A DNA stretch of 64,000 nucleotides from positions 1,472,001-1,536,000 of the forward strand of contig OZ245033.1 of assembly GCA_965224025.1 (NCBI GenBank). Reading direction: 5' to 3'. The translations under genes were made by a program, and so were the position numbers. The notes under the pieces were generated by a model, which saw nothing but the letters and a program-made list of their open reading frames with translations, ran no database searches and was not told the DNA's origin. The stretch comes from Candidatus Multivorans sp. Lineage in GTDB: Bacteria > Acidobacteriota > Thermoanaerobaculia > Multivoradales > Multivoraceae. Positions 7,594-58,740 of this stretch are shown in pieces; within the stretch, counting starts at the first letter, position 1; the number at the start of each line of letters is the position of its first letter.

Positions 7594-7664
7594 GCTAGTC
7601 CCCTCCCCTTCGCGCTGTCGCCTGGTGGCGGCGGTCACCATGAGCGCTCCGCCTGCCGCCGAGG

Positions 7665-7769
7665 CTATGAGCCTGCGCCGAAGAACGTAGCGGAGCGAGG
7701 GCTGAGGCGCAAGCTCATAGGGAGGTGGGGGCTGGGGCCAAACACGGAGCTGCGACGGGTTTGGCGGCG
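7665..7769 (-). repeat. Palindromic repeat family 1, copy A (head plus hairpin tail)
   Basis: Reverse complement aligns with 11433-11538; stem ctatgagc...gctcatag. Confidence 0.85.
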
Positions 7770-7786: not shown

Positions 7787-10700
7787 CTACGGCCGGGCCG
7801 AAACGGCAAGACCGGAAGCCGTCGCCCCTCGGAAGGGTGACTCCGGCCCCACGACCCGCGTCAGCCACTGCTCGCGGTAGGCGTCGATTTCGGACGTCCG
7901 GGGATAGCTCTCGCCGGGCGCGAATGGGTAGCCGGACATCGCCTGGAAGGGCAGGGGCAGGTTGCTGTCCGCCTTCCAGGTGTTGCGGTCGGCGTCCTTG
8001 TCCCAGCCGAAGCTCTCAAGGAAGACTGTGCGGGTGTAGCCGGGCTTCGGCGGCTCGAGGCCGCGGGCATCGAAGAGCAGCCGGATTTCGTCGCCCGGAC
8101 CGATCACGACCAGCCGGTCGTCGACGGCGGTCAGGAGTTCGCTTACGTCGCCGAAGCGCGTGTACCGGCCGGGGAAGGGCAGCCACGGGGACTCGGTGCT
8201 CGTGCGCTGGTAGTCGAACAGGTGCGGACCGTTGGGGGCGGGCCTGGTCAGCGTCGAGAACCCGCGGTAGGCCAGATCCGCCGTGGCCGCGTCGAGGCGG
8301 GCCTGTACGACGACGACGGAACCGTTGACCCCGCCGATGTCCGCGCTCCAGGCGACCCGGTCCCAGTGCAGCCAGCGGGTGGTGACGATCCGCAGCCTGG
8401 TGGCGCCCGCGGGCAGCGGCGGCGTGTCCACCACCATCGTCTTCGTCTTGCCGGGAGGGAAGCCCATCGGGTCGAGCAGCGTCCGCCAGCCCTTCGCGGT
8501 TTCGACCTCGAGCCGGGTAATGACCATCTGCAGATCGCCGTACTCCACCGCCTGGGCGATCGCGAGATTCAGGCTGGCGTCGGCGGGAAACACCCAGCCG
8601 TCCAGCCACAGCCGGATGGGCCTCCCTGGTGCTTCACCCAGGTCGAAGGTGAAGGCCCAGGGCTCGGCGGCGTGGCCCTGGTAGCGCGAGCGTTCGTAGC
8701 CGTCCGCGTAGACGTCGTCCCGGGCGCGGACCCGCTCGGTCACGTCGCGGCCGCGGCCGTCCGATGCGTGGACGATCGGACGGATTCCGGTGCTGGCCAC
8801 CACTTCGTCGGGCGGCCGGCCGATGTGCCCCCGGCCGGGCACGATCCTGAGGTTGCTGGCGACCGCCACGTCGTCGCGGTGATCGACCACCCAGAGGCGC
8901 GCGCGGTCGATGTAGGCGGCTTCCCACAGTTCCTCCGTGATCCGCAGGTCGTAGAAGCCGTCGCGTGGGGCGGCGCCGTCGACCCGGACCAGTTCGTCGG
9001 GGTCGTAGCCGTTCCAGACGCGGTCCGCGAGCGGCATACCCAGCGGTGCGCCCCACAGCAGGTCGGTGACGAAGGTGATCTTCTCGCCGTCCCAGGTGTA
9101 GAGGAAGGGGCAACTGCCCTTGAGCACCTGTTCCTCGACGATGGTCATGTTCTGGCTCGGGTCCAAACGGTTCTGCGGTACGCCGTTGGCCCACACGACA
9201 CGGATCAGATCGGCCTGCCGGCGGTTGCCGAGGCCGATGTGGGTGATTGGGCGCTCGACTTCAAAGTACTGGTACGCCCGGCCGGACTTGACCTCGATCG
9301 TCGTGCCGCGGCCGAAGACGTTGTTCTTCTGGTTGGCCACGTCGAGGCCGACCAGGCGAACGCGCAGCCAATTGTTCTCGGAGCCGTCCAGGTTCTCGAT
9401 CCGGTAGAGGCCGGTGGCGCCGGCCGCGACCAGGTCCTGGTCGCCGTCGTCGTCCAGGTCCTCGGCGCGGATAGCCGTGAACTGAGGGTTGCGTGGCAAA
9501 CCCATGACCCGGGCGAGGCGGAAGTCGAGCGCCTCCGGGCCGGAGTCCGAGGTCTGGGTGAGCACCCGCAGTTCGCCCCCCGCGACCAGGGCAAGATCGA
9601 GCCGCCCATCGTTGTCGGCGTCGAGTAGGGCGAGGTCAGTGGCGCCCTCCGGCAGTGCGACCGAACCGGGGGCCAGGGGGAAGGGAGCGACCGCCCCGTC
9701 TTCGTCGCGCTTCAGGATGAGCGTCGAATCGCCGGCGAGCAGGAACTCGGGACCCCCGTCGTGGTCGAGGTCGGCGGTTCGTACGACGCGCACGGGCGCT
9801 TCCGTGGTCAGGGCGCTCGCTGCCGGCTCGTCGGCGCCGACCAGGCTGATCAGCCTCCCGAGCAGACCGCGGCTGGGAGCGGGCGGGGTTCTCTCCGCGA
9901 ACTGGCCCTGGCGGAGATTGGCCAACCACAGGACACCTTCGTCGTGGGCGAGCAGCAGGTCGGTGTCGCCGTCGCGGTCGGCGTCGGTGGCCTGGAGGTG
10001 GTGGTAGGAGCGCGCCTCGACTTCGGGCAGCGCCTGCCGTCCCAGGGCCTCGAGCGGCCCTTCGAAGACCTCTTCGCCCGACACGTTCCGCAGCAGATCG
10101 GGCACGCCGTCGGCCTTGGCCACGGCGAGATCGAGGTCGCCGTCGCTGTCGAAATCGATCAGGTCGGCCGCGGTCACTGCCAGCGAACTCGCCAGGAACC
10201 GGTCGCTTGCGTCCCCGAACTGCGGCGTGTCGTCGACCTGCCAGACGGCCAGGTGATCGCCGATCGAGATCAGGTCGAGTTGCCGGTCGTTGTCGGCGTC
10301 GCCGACCAGGAGGATCTGGGCGTCGGTTTCGGGGGCGGCGCCCGGTGTGGCGTATCCGGTTGCCGCTTGCCGCAGAACCAGCCGGTTGGCTGAACTGTCC
10401 GCGCCGCCGCTTGACGCTGCGCGCGCGATGTCGGGCCGGTCGTCGCCGTCGAAGTCGGCGACTTCGAGTGCTCGGCCCGATGTCGGCGCGTTGTCGATCC
10501 GAGTAGCCCGGAAGCGGGCGGGATTCGCGGGGCCGAAGTCCTCGTTCGGTTCCTCGTCTTCGAAGTGTTCGACGGGAATACCTGGGATGTTCGTGTGGAT
10601 CTCGGCGAGGCTGCTGCGCCAGCCTGGAGTGTCGACCAGCACGTTCTTGACTCGTGGAGCGAGCCGTTGGGCAAGGTCGAGGTCGTTCGCCTCCAGCGCG

Positions 10701-11374
10701 TCGAGGACATCCCCGAGCACCCGTTCGGCGATTGGCCTGGCCTGCCAGATCAGTTCCCGCACACGCAGGTAGTCGTCGCTCGCTCGGCCGCGGTCGGTAT
10801 CCGCGAGCGCCTCCGCGGCGCTCAGGAGCAGGACGACCAGGTTGTCTGGCCGCAGGCGCCTCAACCGGTCCATCGCGTTCCGCCGGTCGGCTTCGGCTCC
10901 GCTCGTGATTTCTGCTTGGCGGAAGAGCGCGTACTGCGCCTCCGGGTCGTCGGGCGCGAGCCGCGCGGCGCGGCGGTAATCCGCGAGGGCATCCTCGTTG
11001 CTCCCAGCGGTCCACCACTGCAGGATGTCGGCGCGAATCAGCAGCAGATCAGTCCGGTTGCCGCCCAGGTCGAGGGCGTGATTGATCGCGGCCAGCGCCT
11101 CCTCGTGCTGGTCCTGCCGGAGCAAGGCTACGCTCAGGTTGGCGTGGCCGAGCGGTTCGTCGGGCGCTAGCTCGGTCAGTTCCAGGAAGGTGGCTTCGGC
11201 AGCGGTCGGCCGCTCGTTTTCGAGTTGGGCATAGCCGAGGTTTCGCAGGCGCACCATCTCCTCGGACGGTTGGGGCTCCTCGGACGGTTGGGGCTCCTCG
11301 GACGGTTGGGGGCACGCGGCGCCTGTGGAGGCTAGTGCGGCGAGGACGAGAGGGGCTGGAAGTTTGCGGAGCAT
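7787..11374 (-). CDS. TPR plus FG-GAP/VCBS plus ASPIC/UnbV (CRTAC1-like) protein, probable lipoprotein
   Basis: Signal ending GAAC; TPR helices; repeated DFDGDDRPD/DFDSDGDLD/DLDDDGDQD loops; NWLRVRLVG..HIGLG..IRVVWANG; LKGSCPFLYTWDG. Confidence 0.88.
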   Translation of the reverse strand: MLRKLPAPLVLAALASTGAACPQPSEEPQPSEEPQPSEEMVRLRNLGYAQLENERPTAAEATFLELTELAPDEPLGHANLSVALLRQDQHEEALAAINHALDLGGNRTDLLLIRADILQWWTAGSNEDALADYRRAARLAPDDPEAQYALFRQAEITSGAEADRRNAMDRLRRLRPDNLVVLLLSAAEALADTDRGRASDDYLRVRELIWQARPIAERVLGDVLDALEANDLDLAQRLAPRVKNVLVDTPGWRSSLAEIHTNIPGIPVEHFEDEEPNEDFGPANPARFRATRIDNAPTSGRALEVADFDGDDRPDIARAASSGGADSSANRLVLRQAATGYATPGAAPETDAQILLVGDADNDRQLDLISIGDHLAVWQVDDTPQFGDASDRFLASSLAVTAADLIDFDSDGDLDLAVAKADGVPDLLRNVSGEEVFEGPLEALGRQALPEVEARSYHHLQATDADRDGDTDLLLAHDEGVLWLANLRQGQFAERTPPAPSRGLLGRLISLVGADEPAASALTTEAPVRVVRTADLDHDGGPEFLLAGDSTLILKRDEDGAVAPFPLAPGSVALPEGATDLALLDADNDGRLDLALVAGGELRVLTQTSDSGPEALDFRLARVMGLPRNPQFTAIRAEDLDDDGDQDLVAAGATGLYRIENLDGSENNWLRVRLVGLDVANQKNNVFGRGTTIEVKSGRAYQYFEVERPITHIGLGNRRQADLIRVVWANGVPQNRLDPSQNMTIVEEQVLKGSCPFLYTWDGEKITFVTDLLWGAPLGMPLADRVWNGYDPDELVRVDGAAPRDGFYDLRITEELWEAAYIDRARLWVVDHRDDVAVASNLRIVPGRGHIGRPPDEVVASTGIRPIVHASDGRGRDVTERVRARDDVYADGYERSRYQGHAAEPWAFTFDLGEAPGRPIRLWLDGWVFPADASLNLAIAQAVEYGDLQMVITRLEVETAKGWRTLLDPMGFPPGKTKTMVVDTPPLPAGATRLRIVTTRWLHWDRVAWSADIGGVNGSVVVVQARLDAATADLAYRGFSTLTRPAPNGPHLFDYQRTSTESPWLPFPGRYTRFGDVSELLTAVDDRLVVIGPGDEIRLLFDARGLEPPKPGYTRTVFLESFGWDKDADRNTWKADSNLPLPFQAMSGYPFAPGESYPRTSEIDAYREQWLTRVVGPESPFRGATASGLAVSARP
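11258..11311. repeat. 18-bp tandem repeat x3 encoding PQPSEE
   Basis: ctcctcggacggttgggg, three perfect copies. Confidence 0.95.
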
Positions 11375-11432
11375 GGCTCGTAGTGACATGTGCGGCGGGC
11401 GGCGGCCCAATCCTATGTCTCGACAGGACTAG

Positions 11433-11538
11433 CGCCGCCAAACCTGTCGCAGGCTCCATGTTTGGCCCCAGCCCCCACCTCACCAGAAGCTCGCGCCGCG
11501 AGCCTCGCTTTGCTGCGTTCCGCGGCGCGAGCTTCTAG
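11433..11538 (+). repeat. Palindromic repeat family 1, copy B
   Basis: cgccgccaaacctgtcgcagg..tgtttggccccagcccccacctc, then stem agaagctcgcgccgcg/cgcggcgcgagcttct. Confidence 0.85.
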
Positions 11539-11551
11539 AGTAGTCGCCACC

Positions 11552-18232: not shown

Positions 18233-18238
18233 GCTGTG

Positions 18239-18520
18239 ATGCGGACGACGCTGACGATCGACGAAGACATCGCGGCCCGGATCGAAGAACGCCGCCGGCG
18301 GGATGGGCGGTCGCTCAAACAGATCGTCAACACGCTATTGCGCGAGGGGCTTCGCGGTGAGGGACGGCCACGGTCGAAGCCGTACCGCACGAGGCCGCAC
18401 GAACTCTGCCTCCGCCCCGGTTTCGACGGCGCGCGGCTCAACCAGCTCGTCGACGAGTTGGAGACCGATGAGCGTTTGGCGAGCGAGGCCCGGCTACGTT
18501 CGCGCCGTCCGCGTCGATGA
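18239..18520 (+). CDS. vapB: VapB/CopG-type antitoxin
   Basis: MRTTLTIDEDIA..SLKQIVNTLLREGL; overlaps the PIN toxin gene. Confidence 0.85.
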   Translation: MRTTLTIDEDIAARIEERRRRDGRSLKQIVNTLLREGLRGEGRPRSKPYRTRPHELCLRPGFDGARLNQLVDELETDERLASEARLRSRRPRR

Positions 18521-18972
18521 TCGTGCCGGACGTCAACCTGCTGGTGTACTCCGTGGATGCGGCGAGTCCGTTCCACGTAGGGGCGCGTCGTTGGTGGGAT
18601 GGAGTGCTCTCCTCCGATTCGGAGGTCGGGCTGTGCTATCCGAGCATTCTCGGGTTCCTGCGAATGACGACGAATCGGCGCGTGTTCGAGTCGCCCCTGG
18701 CCATCGTGGATGGGCTGAACCGGGTTCAGACTTGGCTGGATCAGCCGAACACGGTGTTGCTGGCGCCGACGGACCGTCACTGGCCGGTCCTCTTCGGGCT
18801 CCTGGAGGCGGCGAATGTCGGCGCGAACCTGACGACCGACGCTCATATCGCCGCGTACGCGATCGAACATGCCGGCACTGTCTACTCGAACGACGGCGAC
18901 TTCGCCCGTTTCGACGGCCTGCGATTGAGGAACCCGTTGGCCGCCGACGGCTCGGCTGCCGGGCGGGCGTAG
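18517..18972 (+). CDS. vapC: VapC PIN-domain toxin
   Basis: MIVPDVNLLVY, NLTTDAHIAAYAIEH, YSNDGDFARFDGL..NPL. Confidence 0.93.
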   Translation: MIVPDVNLLVYSVDAASPFHVGARRWWDGVLSSDSEVGLCYPSILGFLRMTTNRRVFESPLAIVDGLNRVQTWLDQPNTVLLAPTDRHWPVLFGLLEAANVGANLTTDAHIAAYAIEHAGTVYSNDGDFARFDGLRLRNPLAADGSAAGRA

Positions 18973-19021: not shown

Positions 19022-20997
19022 CTACCGCCGCGGCCGCAGCACCATTCGCCGGTCACCCTCGCGCCGCGTCAGCCGCTGGCGGTCCAGGTGCTCCAGCAAC
19101 GGGATCGCCCATTTCCGGGTGAGGCCGAAGCGGTCCTTGAACTCGGTGACCGTGAACGTGTCCCAGCCGGTGGCGAGCAGGTCGCCCTGGAACTGCTCCA
19201 GGGCGCTGGCGGCCAGGATCAGGCCGTTCGGCAGCCGGGTCAGCCTGCCGCGCTCGACGAGGTAGCGGAGCACGCCGTCGAAGACCTGGGGTTTGGCGCC
19301 GATGCTGCGGCAGAGCTCCTCGGGGGACCCCGGGGTGAGTCCCTGCTTCTCGAATCCCTCGACGATGCTTTGCGCGAGCTTCGACTCGACGTCGGTCAGT
19401 TCGGCGGCGCGGCCGGGCAGGGTGACGAGTTCGCCTTCGACGGCTACCGCCTTGTCCGAACCGCCCTGACCGGCCCAGTTGAGGTAGGCGGGGGCGAGGT
19501 CGGCGGCATGCGTGCCGAGCAGCCGCCGCACCAGTTCGGCCTTGGGCATGCCGCGGGACAGGCGGTCGGCGGCGAAGTGCGCCTCGACCAGTCGGCGGGC
19601 GCTGCGGGAGACGTTGCGGACGGTGGCCGCGGAGACGAACCGTTCGGGTCCCGCCTCAAGCAGCAGGCCGTCCTGGGCGGCGCCGGTCAGCACGCTCGCG
19701 GCGTCGCCGCGGACGACCCCCAGGCGCACGCGAGTTCGGTGGCTGCAAGGCCCGCCTCCCGGCCGTCCGCCGCCCACTGCACGGCGGCCTCGCTGGCGCC
19801 CGCGGTCAGGGCGTCGATCGTCGTTCCGAGAGCCTTGCCGCGGCGGTGGCGCCAGGCCGGGTCCAGCACCTCGCCGCCGCCGAGTGTGGTTTGGGGCGAC
19901 GGCCGCCGGATCACGAAGCGGTCGCCGCGAACTGCCACCAGCGGTTCCTCCAGGCGGATCTCCGCCACCGCCTCCCCGCCCGGTTCCAGGCGTTCCACCC
20001 GTGCGCCCGATGACGGGCGCACGGACTGGTTCACGGGTGACGCGGATCGCGCCACCCGGGTTCCGGGCGCCAGCGGCCGGAGCTTGCCGACCCGCTGCGC
20101 GGCCATGACGTGCAGGCGGACGGAGCAGCTCCCCTCGATCGCCTCGGGCGCCGACGCCAGGAGGCGGCAGCGTACGAGCAGCGAAGTCGAGGCGCGGTAG
20201 ACGCCGGGTGTTGTCAGCTCGTGGCCTCGGGCGACGTCTTCCAGGCCGACGCCGACCAGTTGCAACGAGGTGCGTTCGCCGGCCTCCGCCCGTTCGCGGC
20301 CCTCGCCATGGACTTCGATGCCGCGCACCCGGGCGCGGCCGCCGCCGGGCAGGATGTCCAACTCGTCGCCGGTCGTGACGGTTCCCCTGGCCAGCGTGCC
20401 GGTGACCAGTACGCCGAGCCCCTTCAGGTGGAAGGCGCGGTCGATCGGCAGGCGGGCGGGTAGCCCGCTGTGGCGGTCGATCGGCGCCGCCTCGCCGGCG
20501 AGCCGGACCAGGGTCTCGCGAAGCTGGTCCAGCCCGGCGCCGGTCTCGGACGAGACGGGCAGGATGGGCGCTTCGGCGAACGGAGTGTCGGCGAGCGTTT
20601 CCTCGAGTTCCAACTGCGCCAGCTCCAGCAGATCGGGAGGCACCAGGTCCGTCTTCGAGAGCACCGCGACACCGGCCGGAATCCGGAGCAGCGAGCAGAT
20701 CGCGAGGTGTTCCAGGGTCTGGGGCATGACGCCTTCGTCGGCCGCCACGACCAGGACCATCATCTGGATTCCACCCAGTCCCGCGAGTGCGTTACGCACG
20801 AACCGTTCGTGTCCGGGCACGTCGACGAAGCCGATCTGCCAGCCGTTCTCGATCATCGACGCGAAGCCGAGATCGATGGTGATGCCGCGCCGTTTCTCTT
20901 CCTCCCAACGGTCGCAGTCGACCCCGGTCAGGGCCTGGACGAGGCGGGTCTTGCCGTGGTCGACGTGGCCGGCGGTGCCGACGACGAACCGCTTCAC
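19022..20997 (-). CDS. selB: Selenocysteine-specific elongation factor, frameshifted near 19729, with an in-frame repeat insertion
   Basis: GTAGHVDHGKT, EEKRRGITIDLGF, DVPGHERFVRN, RLPIDRAF; C-terminal winged helix FKDRFGLTRKWAIPLLEHLD lies in a second frame. Confidence 0.93.
19995..20063 (+). repeat. Palindromic repeat family 1, copy E, inside selB
   Basis: ccacccgtgcgcccgatgacgggcgcacggactggttcacgggtgacgcggatcgcgccacccgggttc closely matches 40250-40318 and 41583-41651. Confidence 0.9.
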
Positions 20998-21007
20998 GGC
21001 GTCGGCT

Positions 21008-22375
<1,368 letters not shown>

Positions 22376-37295: not shown

Positions 37296-38666
37296 ATGAT
37301 TGACTTGGAGGCGTTCGACCGGGTAACCGCCGAGGCGGAGACGCTGGACAACGGTCTGTCAGTCGTTCTGCTGCCCCAGGCGGACGCCGAATCGATCGTC
37401 ACGGTGGTGTGCTATCGCGCCGGCAGCCGGGACGAGGGTTCAGACGAGACCGGTCTCGCCCACTTCCTGGAGCACATGATGTTCAAGGGGTCGGCGCTCT
37501 ACCCGCCGGGCGCCATCGACCGCGTGACCCAGGGTCTCGGCGGCACGAACAACGCCTTCACGTCGCACGACGTCAGCGCGTACCACTGTCAGTTCGAACG
37601 CGACTCCTGGGGGGAGGCTCTCAAGATCGAGGCGGATCGGATGCGGAGTCTGAGGCTGCTGCCGGAAGAGGTTGAAAGCGAGCGCGAGGTCATCCTCGAA
37701 GAGATCCGGATGGTCGAGGACGATCCCTGGGACGTCCTGGAGCAGGCGGTGGCGCGGCGCGTCTTCGGCGGCCATCCCTACGGCCGCCCGGTGCTGGGTA
37801 CCAGGCGGAGCCTTCGCGGGCTGGACGCCGCGTCCCTCGGCTCCTTCCACCGCCGCCACTACCGGCCGGGCCGCGCCGTCCTGGTCGCGGCCGGAGGCCT
37901 GCCGCCGGACGCGATGGAGCGGATCGAGGCCGCGTTCTGCAACGGGCGTCCCGGCGGCGCGGGCGTCCTGCTCGCATCCGCTGGAGACGCCCCTGGGAAC
38001 GCGGGCATCCTGCCCGCATCCGCTGGAGACGTTCCCGGCAGCGCGGGCACCCTGCCTGCATCCGACTGCCGCGCCGCTCTCCACCCGCCGACCTTCGACG
38101 CCGCGCCCTCGCGCCGGATCGAACTGCACCGAGGCGAGACCGCGCGGCTCCTGGTCGCCCATCCTGCGCCCGCGGCCGGCGATCCGCTGTCCGTCCACGT
38201 TCGCCTCGCGTTGTGTGTCCTCGCCAGTGGACGCGCGAGCCGCATCCAGCGCGATCTGGTCGAACAGGACCCGTTGGCGCTCTGGGCCGCTTGCGGGTCC
38301 AGCGGTCACCGGCTCGGCGGCATGTCGACCCTGGCCGCGGAGGCGGCGGTTGGCGTCGAGCCCGCGCGGCTCGAGGCCGAGGTGTGCGCGCGGATCGACG
38401 CGCTTGCCGCGAGCCCGCCGTCCGTTGAGGAACTCGAGCGGGCGAAGCGGGTCCTGTTCGCCGACTGGGTCTTCATGCACGAGCGGATCGCGGAGCGGGC
38501 GGTCTCGGCCGCCCTCGAGCACGCCCTCTTCTTCCCCGGCTTCAGCCGCGACTCGTACGAGGTGCTCGCTCGCGCCACCGCCGCCGATGTCTCCAATGTC
38601 TGTGCGCTCTGGCTGTCCCCGGCGACCCGGATCGTCGGCTGGTCGCTGCCCGACGGCCCGCCGTGA
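37296..38666 (+). CDS. M16 zinc peptidase, catalytic subunit
   Basis: GLAHFLEHMMFKG (HxxEH), NAFTS, EREVILEE, HPYGRP. Confidence 0.93.
   Translation: MIDLEAFDRVTAEAETLDNGLSVVLLPQADAESIVTVVCYRAGSRDEGSDETGLAHFLEHMMFKGSALYPPGAIDRVTQGLGGTNNAFTSHDVSAYHCQFERDSWGEALKIEADRMRSLRLLPEEVESEREVILEEIRMVEDDPWDVLEQAVARRVFGGHPYGRPVLGTRRSLRGLDAASLGSFHRRHYRPGRAVLVAAGGLPPDAMERIEAAFCNGRPGGAGVLLASAGDAPGNAGILPASAGDVPGSAGTLPASDCRAALHPPTFDAAPSRRIELHRGETARLLVAHPAPAAGDPLSVHVRLALCVLASGRASRIQRDLVEQDPLALWAACGSSGHRLGGMSTLAAEAAVGVEPARLEAEVCARIDALAASPPSVEELERAKRVLFADWVFMHERIAERAVSAALEHALFFPGFSRDSYEVLARATAADVSNVCALWLSPATRIVGWSLPDGPP
37950..38064 (+). repeat. REP-like palindrome array (42-bp period, about 2.7 copies), in frame inside the M16 gene
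   Basis: Core gcgggcatcctgcccgc; encodes PGGAGVLLASAGDA/PGNAGILPASAGDV/PGSAGTLPAS. Confidence 0.85.
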
Positions 38667-38691: not shown

Positions 38692-38760
38692 CTGGGAACG
38701 CGGGCGTCTCGCCCGCATCGGGGCGCTCCGGCCCTGGGAACGCGGGCGTCTCGCCAGCAT
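38692..38760 (+). repeat. REP-like palindrome pair (42-bp period)
   Basis: ctgggaacgcgggcgtctcgcc(c/a)gcat at 38692 and 38734. Confidence 0.85.
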
Positions 38761-38805: not shown

Positions 38806-40128
38806 GTGTCCGTGACGCCCGAGGTAGTCGACCGAGAGCCTTCGCGCCTCGACCTGTGGTCCGGCCGGTTGCGCCTTGCCGCGCTGCGCGTGCCGGGCGC
38901 CGGCGTCGTTGCGGCACGGGCTTGGCTGCGCGGCGGCGCCCGCCTCGAGCCGTTGCCCGGCCTGTCGTTGCTGTGCGGCCGCATGCTGGTCGAGGGCACC
39001 GCGCGCCGGACCTGGCGCGAGATCGCTGAACAGTCCGAGGCGCGCGGCGTCTCGCTGGGCGGCTTCGCGACCGCGGAGGTCCATGGCGTCACGGTCGATG
39101 CGCTGGCTGACGATGCCGGGCTGGCGCTCGAATGGCTGGCCGAACTCGTGCTCGAACCCGGTTTCGAGCGGGCCCGCTTCGAGCTGCTGCGCGACCAGAC
39201 CCTGGGCGAAGTCCGGAGCCTGGCCGATCGGCCCGAGGTGGTCACCGGCTGGGCCTTCCGCGATCAGCTCTACCATCCGCATCCGCTGGCGTCGCCCAGC
39301 CAGGGGACGAGCGAGTCGCTGGTCCGGTTGACGCGGGACGACTGCCAGGGCTTTCACCAAAATGCCCTGGCGCGCGGCGGCGTGATCGCGGTGGCCGGCG
39401 ACATCGACGAGAAGGCGGTGCTGGCGGACCTGGAACGCTTGTTCGAGAGCGCCGGCGCCGTCGAACCCGCGACGCCAGGGGATGCGCCGGCCCTTCGGCC
39501 GGCACCCGCCGGAGGCGGAATCCCGGGCGGTGAACCGCCGAAGCCGCGCGGTCGGGCTGAACGCCGTATCGAGGTCGCCACCGGTTCACGCGAGCAGGCG
39601 CACGTGAACGCCGGGCACTTCACGGTCGACCGGCGACATCCCGATCTGCCGGAACTGCGCGCGCTGGGCATCCTGCTCGGGTCCGACGGTCTGGCTGGCC
39701 TGATTCCCAACCGCATTCGCGAGCAGGAGGGCCTGGCCTATGCCACTCACGTCGATCTGCTCGCCGGCGCCGGCAGCGATCCGGGTGCGTTCTCGGTCTA
39801 CCTTGGCACCCACCCCGATCACGTTGAGCGCGGCCTCGAGTTGGTGCGCGAGTCGCTTGCCGAGGTGCTCGAGCGGCCACCCGATCCGGTTGCTCTCGAA
39901 ACGTGCAAGACCGGCATGTTCGGCCGCGAACCGTTCCGGAGGGAGACCGCCGGCCTGTGGGCCGGACAGCTCGTCGACGCGCTGCTCTTCGACCTGCCGA
40001 GCTACCGGCGTTCGTGGCGGCTCGAACGGATCGAACGGCTCAGCCCCGAGGGCGTCTTCGAGGCTGGGCAGCGGCACATCGACCCGGAACGGTTGCGGGT
40101 GACGGTGGGCTTTCCGGCCCGGCAGTAG
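38806..40128 (+). CDS. M16 peptidase non-catalytic partner subunit
   Basis: GLSLLCGRMLVEGT (no HxxEH), HPL..GT.ES, RIREQEGLAY; start uncertain. Confidence 0.85.
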   Translation: MSVTPEVVDREPSRLDLWSGRLRLAALRVPGAGVVAARAWLRGGARLEPLPGLSLLCGRMLVEGTARRTWREIAEQSEARGVSLGGFATAEVHGVTVDALADDAGLALEWLAELVLEPGFERARFELLRDQTLGEVRSLADRPEVVTGWAFRDQLYHPHPLASPSQGTSESLVRLTRDDCQGFHQNALARGGVIAVAGDIDEKAVLADLERLFESAGAVEPATPGDAPALRPAPAGGGIPGGEPPKPRGRAERRIEVATGSREQAHVNAGHFTVDRRHPDLPELRALGILLGSDGLAGLIPNRIREQEGLAYATHVDLLAGAGSDPGAFSVYLGTHPDHVERGLELVRESLAEVLERPPDPVALETCKTGMFGREPFRRETAGLWAGQLVDALLFDLPSYRRSWRLERIERLSPEGVFEAGQRHIDPERLRVTVGFPARQ

Positions 40129-40130
40129 AG

Positions 40131-40354
40131 CCGCCGAATCCCTCGCAGGTCCGGTGTTTGGCCCCGGCCCCACCTCACCAGGAGGCTTCGCAGCGGACTC
40201 GCTGCGCTGCCGCGCATGGAACTGGCCGCGGACTGCGTGCGCCGGCCTGCCATCCGTGCGCCCGATGACGGGCGCACGGAGTGGTTCGCGGGCGGCGCGG
40301 ATCGCGCCACCCGGGTTCTGGCCGGCATCCGCAGGCACGACCGCACGGCCGAAC
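40131..40354 (+). repeat. Palindromic repeat family 1, copy C (head plus long tail)
   Basis: Head matches copies A and B; tail matches 41524-41665 and 41769-41790; hairpins gcagcg-gact-cgctgc and ccgtgcgcccg-atga-cgggcgcacgg. Confidence 0.88.
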
Positions 40355-40420
40355 GATGATGCCGCCGACCATCTGAGGTCATGTCGCACGTTCGCGCTCT
40401 TTGCGCATAGGATCCTCGCC

Positions 40421-41464
40421 ATGGCCGAGCCCGCCCGCGCTGCGCGAACGCCGCCGCCCGAAGAGCGGCGCGATCCGGAACAGGCGCCGCTCGAAGCGGC
40501 CGACTTTCCCGGCTGCCGGGCGGTCCGGATAGCGCCCGGGGAGATCGAGGACCACGAGGGCCGCGTGGAGTACTGGGAGGCGCGCACCGGGACCGCGATG
40601 GTGGTCTGCGAGACCACCACGTTCCACGAACAGCCGGCGCAGCGGCTGGCGCGACTGGCCGAGCGGATAACGGCTTCGAGGGGATCGCCGATCGAGACGT
40701 TCGGAACGGCGGCCCTGGCGCGCTTCTACCTTGGCGGCGAGTTGCGGGTGTTCATGCAGGCGGACCAGATCCTCTACCTGCACCCGCCTTCCGCCGAAGA
40801 GCTGACGCCGAGGGTCGAAGTGGACGGCGAGGATCTGCCGGACGTCGTCCTGGAGGTCGACTACTCCACCGACGTCCGGGTGCGCAAGCTGCCGCTGTAC
40901 GAGGCGTGGGGTTTTCCCGAGGTCTGGGTCGATGTGCCGGACGCGCGCTCGCGGAGTCGCCCGAAGTCCCGGCGCTCGGGTTTGACGATCCACGTGCTCG
41001 AAGGCGGCCGTTTCCACCCGGCGAAGCGCAGCCGGGCGTTCCCGGGCTGGACGGCGGAAGAGATCCACAGGGCGTTGAACGAAGACGCGATGTCGGCATC
41101 GACGGCGGCCGCGCTGCATCGGGTCGGCGCCGCCATGGGCGCCGCCGAAGGCGCCGGCCCGGACGACGATCCCTGGTTGCGGCGTTACCGTGACGAGGGC
41201 CGTGGCGAGGGTCACGCCGACGGTCGCGCCGAGGGCCGCGCCGAGGGTCGCGCCGAGACACGGTACGAGTCGGTCATCGCCGTCCTCGCGGAACGCGGCA
41301 TCGCGACCACGCAGGCCTTGCCGGCGCGCATTGCGGAACTCGGGGAGATTCCGTTGACCGTGTTGGTGCGGGCCGCGCTCCGTTGCGCGAGCGAGAGGGA
41401 GTTCCTGGAGCTCTGCGCCGCAAAGCGGCGCCGCCCGCAGGCCCGTGACCTGGGCGGCCCTTGA
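40421..41464 (+). CDS. Uma2/DUF820-family PD-(D/E)xK endonuclease-like protein
   Basis: HEQP, MQADQILY, LPDVVLEVD, KLPLYEAWGFPEVWV, SRAFPG; EGRG/EGHA/EGRA repeats. Confidence 0.85.
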   Translation: MAEPARAARTPPPEERRDPEQAPLEAADFPGCRAVRIAPGEIEDHEGRVEYWEARTGTAMVVCETTTFHEQPAQRLARLAERITASRGSPIETFGTAALARFYLGGELRVFMQADQILYLHPPSAEELTPRVEVDGEDLPDVVLEVDYSTDVRVRKLPLYEAWGFPEVWVDVPDARSRSRPKSRRSGLTIHVLEGGRFHPAKRSRAFPGWTAEEIHRALNEDAMSASTAAALHRVGAAMGAAEGAGPDDDPWLRRYRDEGRGEGHADGRAEGRAEGRAETRYESVIAVLAERGIATTQALPARIAELGEIPLTVLVRAALRCASEREFLELCAAKRRRPQARDLGGP

Positions 41465-41506
41465 TGCCTCCCGTTCCCTGAGCTGCTGGCGATGCGGGTG
41501 AGCGCT

Positions 41507-41790
41507 CTCACCTTGGAGTACCCGCAGCGGACTCGCTGCGCCGCCGCGCATGGAACCGGCCGCCACTGGGTCCGCCGGCCTGCCATCCGTGCGCCCGACG
41601 ACGGGCGCGCGGAGTGGTTCGCGGGTGGCGCGGATCGCGCCACCCGGGTTCTGGCCGGCATCCGCCGAAGGCGGCCAGATCGACGCGCCGGCGGCGAGGT
41701 TGGGCCGCCGGACGGAGCGTTCAGTTGTCGGTCGTCGACTTCGGCGTGTCTTCCTGCCTGCGATCTGGAGGCACGACCGCGCGGCCGAAC
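41507..41790 (+). repeat. Palindromic repeat family 1, copy D (tail interrupted by about 103 bp)
   Basis: 41524-41665 is a direct repeat of 40190-40332; 41769-41790 matches 40333-40354. Confidence 0.88.
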
Positions 41791-56543: not shown

Positions 56544-56765
56544 ATGAGTGCGGTGCTGCAACTCCGGGTCAACGGCCAGGAGCGGGAACTGGCTTCGTCG
56601 GGATCCGGCGTCACCGTTCTCGATCTGCTTGCGAGCCTGGACCAGCACCCGAAGACGGTGGCGGTCGAGGTGAACCGCGAACTCGTGCCGCGCGCCCGCT
56701 TCGGCGAAACGGCGCTCCGCGACGGGGACCGGGTCGAGGTCGTTCGCTTCGTCCAGGGTGGCTAG
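56544..56765 (+). CDS. thiS: Sulfur carrier protein ThiS
   Basis: [23 protein letters not shown]-terminus. Confidence 0.9.
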
Positions 56766-56833
56766 CGACGCAGTGTTCTACGGGGGCTGGGTCGAGATCG
56801 TTCGCTTCGTCCAGGGTGGTTGGAGACGCAGTG
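56731..56833 (+). repeat. Imperfect 58-bp-period duplication of the thiS 3' end
   Basis: gggtcgag(g/a)tcgttcgcttcgtccagggtgg..gacgcagtg at 56731 and 56789. Confidence 0.9.
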
Positions 56834-57026: not shown

Positions 57027-57108
57027 GCGAAAGTGGCGGAACTGGTAGACGCGCTAGACTTAGGATCTAGTCCCGAAAGGGTTGGGGGTTCGAGTCCCCC
57101 CTTTCGCA
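57027..57108 (+). tRNA. tRNA-Leu(TAG)
   Basis: GCGAAAG/CTTTCGC acceptor, CTAGA-CTTAGGA-TCTAG anticodon arm, variable arm; CCA not encoded. Confidence 0.95.
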
Positions 57109-57116
57109 CGCCCGAC

Positions 57117-57190
57117 GCGGAACCGGTCGAGCGCTAGACTCAGAATCTAGTCCCGCAAGGGTTTGGGGGTTCGAGTCCCCCCTTTCGCAC
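57117..57190 (+). pseudogene. Partial tandem copy of tRNA-Leu with anticodon CAG
   Basis: Matches 57036-57109; lacks the 5' acceptor strand; D arm degraded. Confidence 0.85.
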
Positions 57191-58598: not shown

Positions 58599-58740
58599 AT
58601 GCTGTACCCATTGTGGCCGGGCAGCAGGACCGGACGGAAAGAGAGGGCTGAGGGGATGCTTGTACTCATGGTGGTTGGGCAGCAGGACCGGACGGAAAGA
58701 GAGGGCTGAGGGGATGCTTGTACCCATGGTGGTTGAGCAG
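58599..58740 (+). repeat. 57-58-bp tandem repeat of the clpP RBS and first codons
   Basis: ATG-containing units start at 58599, 58656 and 58714; cagcaggaccggacggaaagagagggctgagggg occurs twice. Confidence 0.92.

Follow-up and report, generated by a model that had tools for sequence, protein, structure and literature searches.

Palindromic repeats that lie in frame within protein-coding genes are known mainly from Rickettsia and have been taken as a quirk of reduced intracellular genomes. Among the described systems, Rickettsia palindromic elements (RPEs) are short palindromic repeats that occur both between genes and in frame in conserved genes of unrelated function, whose proteins gain a peptide and are not destroyed by it (PMC10969869, PMC3733652), with 44 insertions recorded in R. 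conorii (PMC10969869, citing Ogata 2000). Repetitive extragenic palindromes (REPs) inside genes (PMC3733652) as well as in-frame fusions of Coxiella and enterobacterial MITEs (miniature transposable elements with inverted repeats; PMC5896051, PMC10969869) are also on record. Here, we describe a comparable case in a 64,000-nt stretch of a Candidatus Multivorans sp. genome (Acidobacteriota; contig OZ245033.1, positions 1,472,001 to 1,536,000; 68% G+C; hereafter the window), in which 69 nt of selB resemble two intergenic repeats. We consider it likely (probability about 0.85) that these 69 nt are a copy of an interspersed repeat that was inserted in frame and is read as a tolerated loop. As in RPEs, the palindromic repeat is found in frame in conserved open reading frames (ORFs), namely selB and the genes of two other conserved enzymes, a prolyl oligopeptidase and GltD, which upholds the RPE-like reading put forward in an initial annotation of the window.

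The insert occupies 23 codons at 19996-20064 on the minus strand and is read as GTRVARSASPVNQSVRPSSGARV, a peptide rich in Gly, Ser, Pro, and Arg that corresponds exactly to a 23-residue gap in P0002 and 107 other SelB rows of our alignment. The initial annotation had the length of 69 nt and the translation right, but its coordinates (19995-20063) are one base off when counted by codons. The minus-strand ORF that contains the insert (19687-21177) is SelB according to Pfam (GTP_EFTU, GTP_EFTU_D2, Beta-barrel_SelB), and its translation across the site reads ...RPLAPGTRVARSASPVNQSVRPSSGARVERLEPGGEAVAEIRLEEP... On the DNA level, the full similarity to the intergenic copies spans 19989-20080 on the plus strand, which blastn pairs with 40244-40335 (85.9% identity over 92 nt, E 6e-26) and for which nhmmer gives 19988-20084 (E 2e-18). 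The core of the repeat, exemplified by 40248-40318, is approximately 68 to 69 nt long and consists of hairpin 1, a short spacer, hairpin 2, and GGGTTC. Sequence and folding place hairpin 1 of the selB copy at 19999-20024, with a perfect 11-bp stem and a 4-nt loop (ATGA), and hairpin 2 at 20035-20057, with a stem of approximately 10 bp that includes 1 mismatch in this copy and a 3-nt loop. The 26-nt hairpin motif, allowing for up to 3 mismatches, has 3 sites in the window (19999-20024, 40254-40279, and 41587-41612) and none in 100 dinucleotide shuffles; a second motif, which ends in GGGTTC, has exactly 3 window sites at matching offsets and is equally absent from the shuffles. The blastn alignment and these counts confirm what had been proposed from the sequence, namely that the selB segment is a copy of the core of the intergenic repeats at 40248-40318 and 41581-41651, and the 11-bp hairpin with its ATGA loop is indeed present, with up to 3 mismatches, at all 3 sites. 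As RNA, the selB segment is predicted to form two strong hairpins (-55.7 kcal/mol over 91 nt, z -3.4).

Homologues were searched with the first 436 SelB residues as query, the close relatives being named Acidobacteria, Holophagales, or Thermoanaerobaculia, and the window protein was aligned with 118 hits of more than 500 residues (119 rows in total), with the segment measured between GKLRPL and LEPGG. At this site, 108 of the 119 rows have 14 to 15 residues and no insert. The window protein, P0001, and P0024 have 38 residues (23 extra), P0025 has 41 (26 extra), and P0023 has 66 (51 extra). Among the remaining rows, P0098 has 23 extra residues whose relation to the core is unclear, 4 contain short unrelated extras (P0072, +12; P0089, +8; P0088, +4; P0111, +3), and P0056 is a frameshifted gene call. 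No core-like segment is present in the outgroup rows P0057 and P0072, and the Beta-barrel_SelB match covers 105 residues compared to 74 profile positions. The 23-residue segment is an insertion absent from most SelB homologues. However, the expectation that it would be found in this SelB alone did not hold, since P0001, P0023, P0024, and P0025 have a related insert at an identical position, with frame and orientation shared as well; the insertion is the same one, found in a minority of alleles, and does not represent a SelB segment of ancestral origin. P0001, an intact 658-residue SelB from another assembly, is 93% identical to the window SelB, and its insert, TRVARSAPPVNQSVRPSSGARM, equals the hand-translated reverse complement of the commonest core sequence. 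An independent check by tblastn matched residues 313-334 of P0001 to the translated intergenic copy at 40251-40316 with 91% identity. In P0023, P0024, and P0025, the insert has diverged far from the core, and an intergenic core copy in the genome of P0030 (L019) has not drifted.

An AlphaFold2 model of P0001, built from an 85-row alignment, reached a mean predicted local distance difference test score (pLDDT) of 86.1 and a predicted template modeling score of 0.78. Foldseek matched it to ribosome-bound E. coli SelB (5lzb_z, TM 0.80/0.85) and also to 4zu9, and both Pfam and the Foldseek results correspond to the architecture of bacterial SelB, with EF-Tu-like GTPase domains I-III followed by C-terminal winged-helix domains. 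Residues 313-333 have pLDDT values below 50 and lie between the domain III strands 300-308 and 342-354. Structure modeling, which had been suggested as a check, hence shows a low-confidence loop between two beta strands, and according to the model the insert is probably a disordered loop of 23 residues. This domain III loop tolerates changes in length, as other lineages hold small unrelated insertions there. With regard to the proposal that the element adds peptides to surface loops of conserved proteins, the inserts in conserved proteins are substantiated by the in-frame copies in prolyl oligopeptidase and GltD, while a surface loop is suggested by the model for SelB only.

Species-representative genomes were scanned with a hairpin 1 pattern that left five positions free, yielding at least 111 stretches, 80 of which included 2-kb flanks; since the pattern demanded an intact hairpin 1, diverged copies were missed and all copy numbers are lower bounds. 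Using a profile of the two intergenic window copies, nhmmer found 104 matches, namely 101 among the loci listed plus the 3 of the window. The element was present in 86 of the 111 loci listed, all of them from Acidobacteriota metagenome-assembled genomes. Their labels are Candidatus Multivorans, Thermoanaerobaculia, Holophagales, and "Acidobacteria bacterium," and, in one case, Vicinamibacteraceae. All 25 loci that lack the element belong to other phyla and represent chance hairpins. Counting the core across genomes, as had been recommended, thus revealed a dispersed family with at least 97 unique copies outside the window, at least 15 of which are found in one chromosome. Among the unique copies in the matches listed, 97 of 100 lie outside genes and 3 within them, i.e., the repeat is mainly intergenic, located 3' of genes, and not gene-seeking. 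The core length between fixed landmarks is 68 nt in 36 copies, 69 nt in 26, and 66 to 67 nt in 6, with most of the variation in the hairpin 2 loop. Cores occur alone, in head-to-tail tandems (L034, L092, L106, and L104), nested in a second repeat, beside two other recurrent flanks, or, as in both intergenic window copies, within a conserved outer stem, and the family appears modular. At L104:252-408, hairpin 2 is swapped for an unrelated module, two of which lie in tandem, and L034:2932-3173 contains three head-to-tail cores. The repeat is a lineage-specific, noncoding, hairpin-rich interspersed family that behaves like REPs, bacterial interspersed mosaic elements (BIMEs), or MITEs. A gathering-threshold Rfam search of the whole window returned only 3 tRNAs and no family for the repeat, and a search of 40100-40450 with E-values up to 10 returned only chance-level matches of at most 12.5 bits. 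A tRNA-like reading of the GGTTC motifs was rejected, as ARAGORN gives only 3 ordinary tRNAs elsewhere in the window. Among the papers listed by literature searches on this lineage and on acidobacterial REP/RAYT repeats, no description of the repeat was found.

All 104 matches were screened for copies within genes by requiring a frame through the core and a third-position G+C of at least 0.78 on both sides, which 3 sites passed: selB, L014/L015, and L007. L014/L015 (OZ251997) encodes a prolyl oligopeptidase (Pfam Peptidase_S9_N and Peptidase_S9), in which the 23-residue insert NPGGALSRHTRTSPSARHRALGW is found in 9 clusters, is diverged in 1, and is absent from 50 of 60 aligned rows. L007 encodes the small subunit of glutamate synthase (GltD); here, 3 of 36 rows contain the insert and the other 33 do not. 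All three inserts amount to 23 residues, or 69 nt, net, and are read antisense to the 3'-of-gene orientation of the core, in two different frames. We regard the claims about the insertion and the repeat family as secure.

The second repeat allows filled and empty sites to be compared. It is uninterrupted in 4 copies, which read GCCCGC-GTTCCCAG with GTTC present once, and interrupted there by the core in 15 copies, in which the core is preceded by GT(G/T)C (G in 11, T in 3, another base in 1) and its right end reads GGGTTC before CCAGG (Type B rows). Therefore, the core appears to add 68 nt at GTTC and to leave a 4-nt direct repeat. Across the family, the words at the left flank are GTGC, GTTC, ATGC, or GCGC. 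We conclude that the core is, or was, mobile. Both ends carry a nearby hairpin without inverted repeats, and we infer that the repeat was moved by a trans-acting enzyme that recognizes hairpins; a tentative candidate for this role is an HUH/Y1 transposase that acts on single strands, of either the RAYT or the IS200/IS605 type. No strand or replichore bias that would point to lagging-strand targeting was apparent, with 18 plus and 18 minus copies in the first halves and 14 plus and 21 minus copies in the second halves of sequences whose origin positions are unknown.

In selB, GTTCC is directly repeated at 19992-19996 and 20060-20064, i.e., 68 nt apart, while the net insertion compared to the homologues is 69 nt, and therefore one extra base is required at the right junction. 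According to the mechanism we propose, an old insertion would have landed at GTTC in the part of selB that codes for the loop between two domain III beta strands. Since the net length is a multiple of three and the frame is without a stop, the insert would be translated as a 23-residue loop, and SelB would tolerate this added disordered loop, which we assume to be neutral in its host. A single old event, consisting of a 68-nt insertion followed by a one-base frame correction, is hinted at by back-translation: the junction geometry with one extra base predicts the Gly with which all five insert-bearing SelB rows start their insert. If there was a single origin, filled alleles would share the extra base beside the right-hand GTTC, and empty alleles would read GCGTTCGGG.

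The distribution of the insert among SelB proteins is scattered. On a tree of 54 SelB rows calculated without the insert columns, the five insert-bearing rows need 5 changes, and well-supported branches require at least 4 of them: the sister of P0025 is P0030, which has no insert (support 99), and that of P0023 is P0029, likewise without one (support 100). The approximately unbiased (AU) test rejects the five rows as one clade (p 8e-32, for a group chosen after the tree was seen), but it does not reject the window SelB and P0001 as sisters, the constrained tree being better by 9.26 log-likelihood units. The insertion could be old and have been lost several times, it could have occurred repeatedly at a preferred GCGTTC, or alleles could have been exchanged by recombination.

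It should be noted that the selB gene is split in the window sequence. It extends on the minus strand from a GTG start at 20997 to a stop at 19022-19024, in frame -2 down to approximately 19730 and in frame -1 thereafter, so that, instead of the uninterrupted frame of SelB, two overlapping ORFs are found, 19687-21177 and 19022-19777, the latter with the SelB winged-helix domains (Pfam SelB-wing_3). According to tblastn with P0001 and P0002, the shift is due to a one-base deletion in the region of 19729-19732, which reads GCGTGCGCC where the relatives need one base more; both halves are 89% to 93% identical to P0001 and P0002, and no further lesion was detected by this search. Frameshift-like SelB calls (P0053 and P0056) also come from two other assemblies, and the deletion may therefore be either a sequencing error or a recent inactivation. 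Among the 40 window ORFs named, there is no selA, selD, or selenoprotein gene. A SECIS-like autoregulatory hairpin in the selB mRNA was considered and rejected, since the element is a genome-wide repeat without a link to selenoprotein genes. Two genes of the opposite strand follow directly downstream of selB, at 18236-18972: a VapB-like ORF and the gene for a VapC PIN-domain toxin.

Several points weigh against a mobile repeat read as a neutral loop. The frameshift lies downstream of the insert, and the copy in the window may therefore sit in a dying gene, while translation of the insert is judged from its frame and length. Furthermore, a simple target duplication does not account for the 69 nt in selB without the additional base described above. 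The core ends lack terminal inverted repeats (approximately 5 of 13 positions agree by eye), and no transposase was found among the 40 window ORFs scanned, the genes in the fetched loci not having been scanned. Finally, neutrality is challenged by the oligopeptidase insert, which is identical at 181 of 184 positions (98.4%) compared to 4794 of 5471 (87.6%) for the rest of the protein in 8 comparisons among P0122-P0130 (Fisher p 2e-7, which overstates the case as the rows are related and not independent). This conservation could be due to stem constraint, gene conversion, or function.

That the insert was recruited for a function in host proteins or mRNAs and is kept by selection would explain the latter observation, and would also agree with its persistence in at least 4 separate places of the SelB tree and with the still perfect hairpin 1 of the selB copy. 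Yet we regard recruitment as unlikely: most relatives do without the insert in all three proteins, the SelB inserts of P0023, P0024, and P0025 drifted strongly, and between the window and P0001 the SelB insert is no better conserved (21/23) than the rest of the protein (376/412). In addition, the model predicts no fold for the insert, and slow change can equally result from stem constraints or from gene conversion between copies. A different view, in which SelB had the segment ancestrally and the intergenic repeats are selB fragments that became scattered, is extremely improbable. While it would account for five SelB rows on different branches sharing site, frame, and orientation, the copies elsewhere follow a consensus of their own, include nested and tandem forms, and show no other similarity to selB; the intergenic copies continue on both sides into sequence that is not from selB, the same core is present in two unrelated genes, and the outgroup as well as most SelB rows are without the segment. 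Equally improbable is a chimeric assembly or sequencing artefact, for which the one-base frameshift in the same gene and the frameshift-like calls of P0053 and P0056 could be cited. The same insert is found in P0001, from an independent assembly, it lies in frame and is flanked by unbroken SelB sequence, and in the other two genes, 9 and 3 independent clusters, respectively, contain a parallel insert.

A stronger competitor, which we nevertheless rate at somewhat less than even odds, is that the repeat is first of all a functional structured RNA, a stabilizer or terminator in the 3' untranslated region (UTR) made up of an outer stem and two hairpins, and that its copies in genes are accidental by-products. 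It is based on the extended form of the repeat, to which both intergenic window copies belong: 40189-40332 on the plus strand, with its core within the outer stem, and 41523-41665 on the same strand, which lie approximately 60 nt past the stops of the M16 peptidase gene and of ORF 40454-41464, respectively, on the strand of the upstream gene, and share 93.75% identity over 144 nt (blastn). For 29 extended copies, a consensus fold of four helices was obtained, in which 97.6% of the pair cells are paired and nine pairs are changed on both sides, values of pairing and covariation that none of 500 shuffles reached; hairpin 1 is invariant in these copies, but it was fixed by the search pattern. In long loci, 17 of 20 extended copies share the strand of the upstream gene (2 are opposite and 1 is without a called gene), and the core typically lies 16 to 51 nt past the upstream stop. 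For all intergenic copies listed, the upstream gene is on the same strand in 44 cases and on the opposite strand in 16. REPs are likewise described as mostly located downstream of coding regions and plausibly transcribed (Di Nocera 2013, PMC3733652), and the extended form agrees with a transcribed 3'-UTR element of the kind suggested for REPs; a transposase substrate agrees with it equally well, since covariation of a palindrome is just as much expected for single-stranded DNA recognized by a transposase. Moreover, no T run follows the structure in the copies listed, Rfam gave no family for the repeat in the window or in 40100-40450, and all three copies in genes are antisense to the 3'-of-gene orientation. 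A role as RNA is compatible with mobility and may add to it. The most far-reaching combination, which we consider improbable, would be an active element of single-stranded DNA, selective for its site, that cleanly goes into and out of one and the same GTTC of selB, related lineages thereby switching a 23-residue loop on and off in SelB, prolyl oligopeptidase, and GltD, with at least the oligopeptidase segment under its own constraint and the extended form representing a new structured 3'-UTR RNA of Acidobacteriota.

Additional repeats were observed in the window. The second repeat (ATGCGGGC..GCCCGC-GTTCCCAG, with a 42-nt period) lies at 37951-38061 inside an M16 peptidase ORF (37296-38666), where it translates as three tandem 14-residue units, GxAGxLxASAGDxP, and it is also found at 38692-38760. 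The Peptidase_M16_C match of this ORF covers 211 residues compared to 179 profile positions, and the repeat looks like another in-frame insertion within the same window. In the region of 40189-41665, the two extended copies, in direct orientation and 1333 nt apart, bracket the lone ORF 40454-41464, which has a weak, sub-threshold match to Uma2 (putative endonuclease) and no NCBIfam name. An integron attC site or cassette was rejected as explanation for this arrangement, since single units are scattered over genomes and the window contains no integrase. A third repeat family forms a 97-nt inverted pair (7654-7750 and 11453-11549, 75% complementary) that flanks an unnamed ORF of 1207 residues (7787-11410), and a 39-nt piece of it recurs at 40157-40195, just upstream of the first intergenic copy. 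Furthermore, the 3' end of a tRNA-Leu (57076-57109) is repeated 81 nt downstream (57157-57190) with 94% identity, and tandem duplications of 54 to 58 nt are located on either side of the trigger factor gene, at 56722-56833 and 58603-58718.

The occurrence of the process known from Rickettsia in large, GC-rich Acidobacteriota genomes, and with another repeat, suggests that the proliferation of hairpin repeats generally leads to this outcome. For annotation, this means that 23-residue segments would otherwise be misread as lineage-specific protein features. Three enzymes of known structure now provide natural pairs with and without the insert, which offer a test of how proteins absorb random loops, and the extended form is a candidate for a new 3'-UTR structure.

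With regard to known systems, miniature elements of the IS200/IS605 type have subterminal hairpins, lack terminal inverted repeats, recognize a short word at the left flank, and cause no target duplication. The core resembles such palindrome-associated elements in its hairpin near each end, its lack of inverted repeats, and a left-flank GTKC similar to the right-end GTTC, and the precise gain and loss typical of this type would suit the scattered SelB distribution. In contrast to these elements, however, the 4-nt direct repeat may just as well reflect duplication of the target, and no tnpA was seen among the 40 window ORFs named, for which no search aimed at a Y1 transposase was made. Intragenic MITEs (Coxiella QMITE, ERIC, and pneumococcal BOX) are small non-autonomous repeats that sometimes form in-frame fusions as well (PMC5896051, PMC10969869), but they are bounded by terminal inverted repeats and affect mostly the ends of genes or hypothetical ORFs, whereas the copies described here lie in the middle of the genes of three conserved enzymes.

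The similarity to REPs, BIMEs, and REPINs is more extensive, as these are GC-rich imperfect palindromes that are mostly located downstream of ORFs, are mosaic or clustered, show compensatory stem changes, and occasionally occur in genes (PMC3733652, PMC2817692, PMC3116915); the repeat likewise is a short imperfect palindrome of high copy number, mostly extragenic and downstream of ORFs. It differs from REPs in having two different hairpins per unit of approximately 68 nt instead of one palindrome of 20 to 40 bp, and the commonest core is without GTAG/CTAC, CGTC being confined to the reverse strand, where the loop of hairpin 1 joins its stem. Unlike REPINs, its clusters are arranged head-to-tail and not as inverted doublets, and no RAYT turned up among the 40 window ORFs, for which no dedicated RAYT search was made. 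Compared to RPEs, the unit is smaller (approximately 68 to 69 nt versus approximately 150 bp, PMC10969869), 3 of 100 listed copies lie in genes versus nearly half for some RPE families, and the hosts are Acidobacteriota with 68% G+C and genomes of 4.4 to 5.4 Mb instead of the reduced AT-rich Rickettsia. All 86 element-bearing loci being acidobacterial, the element does not belong to the RPEs with respect to its host, a distinction drawn from their description and not from sequence comparison. Because lineage and unit size differ and neither a GTAG tag nor terminal inverted repeats are present, the element is a member of none of these families; it works like an RPE, REP, or MITE, with RPEs as its closest analogue.

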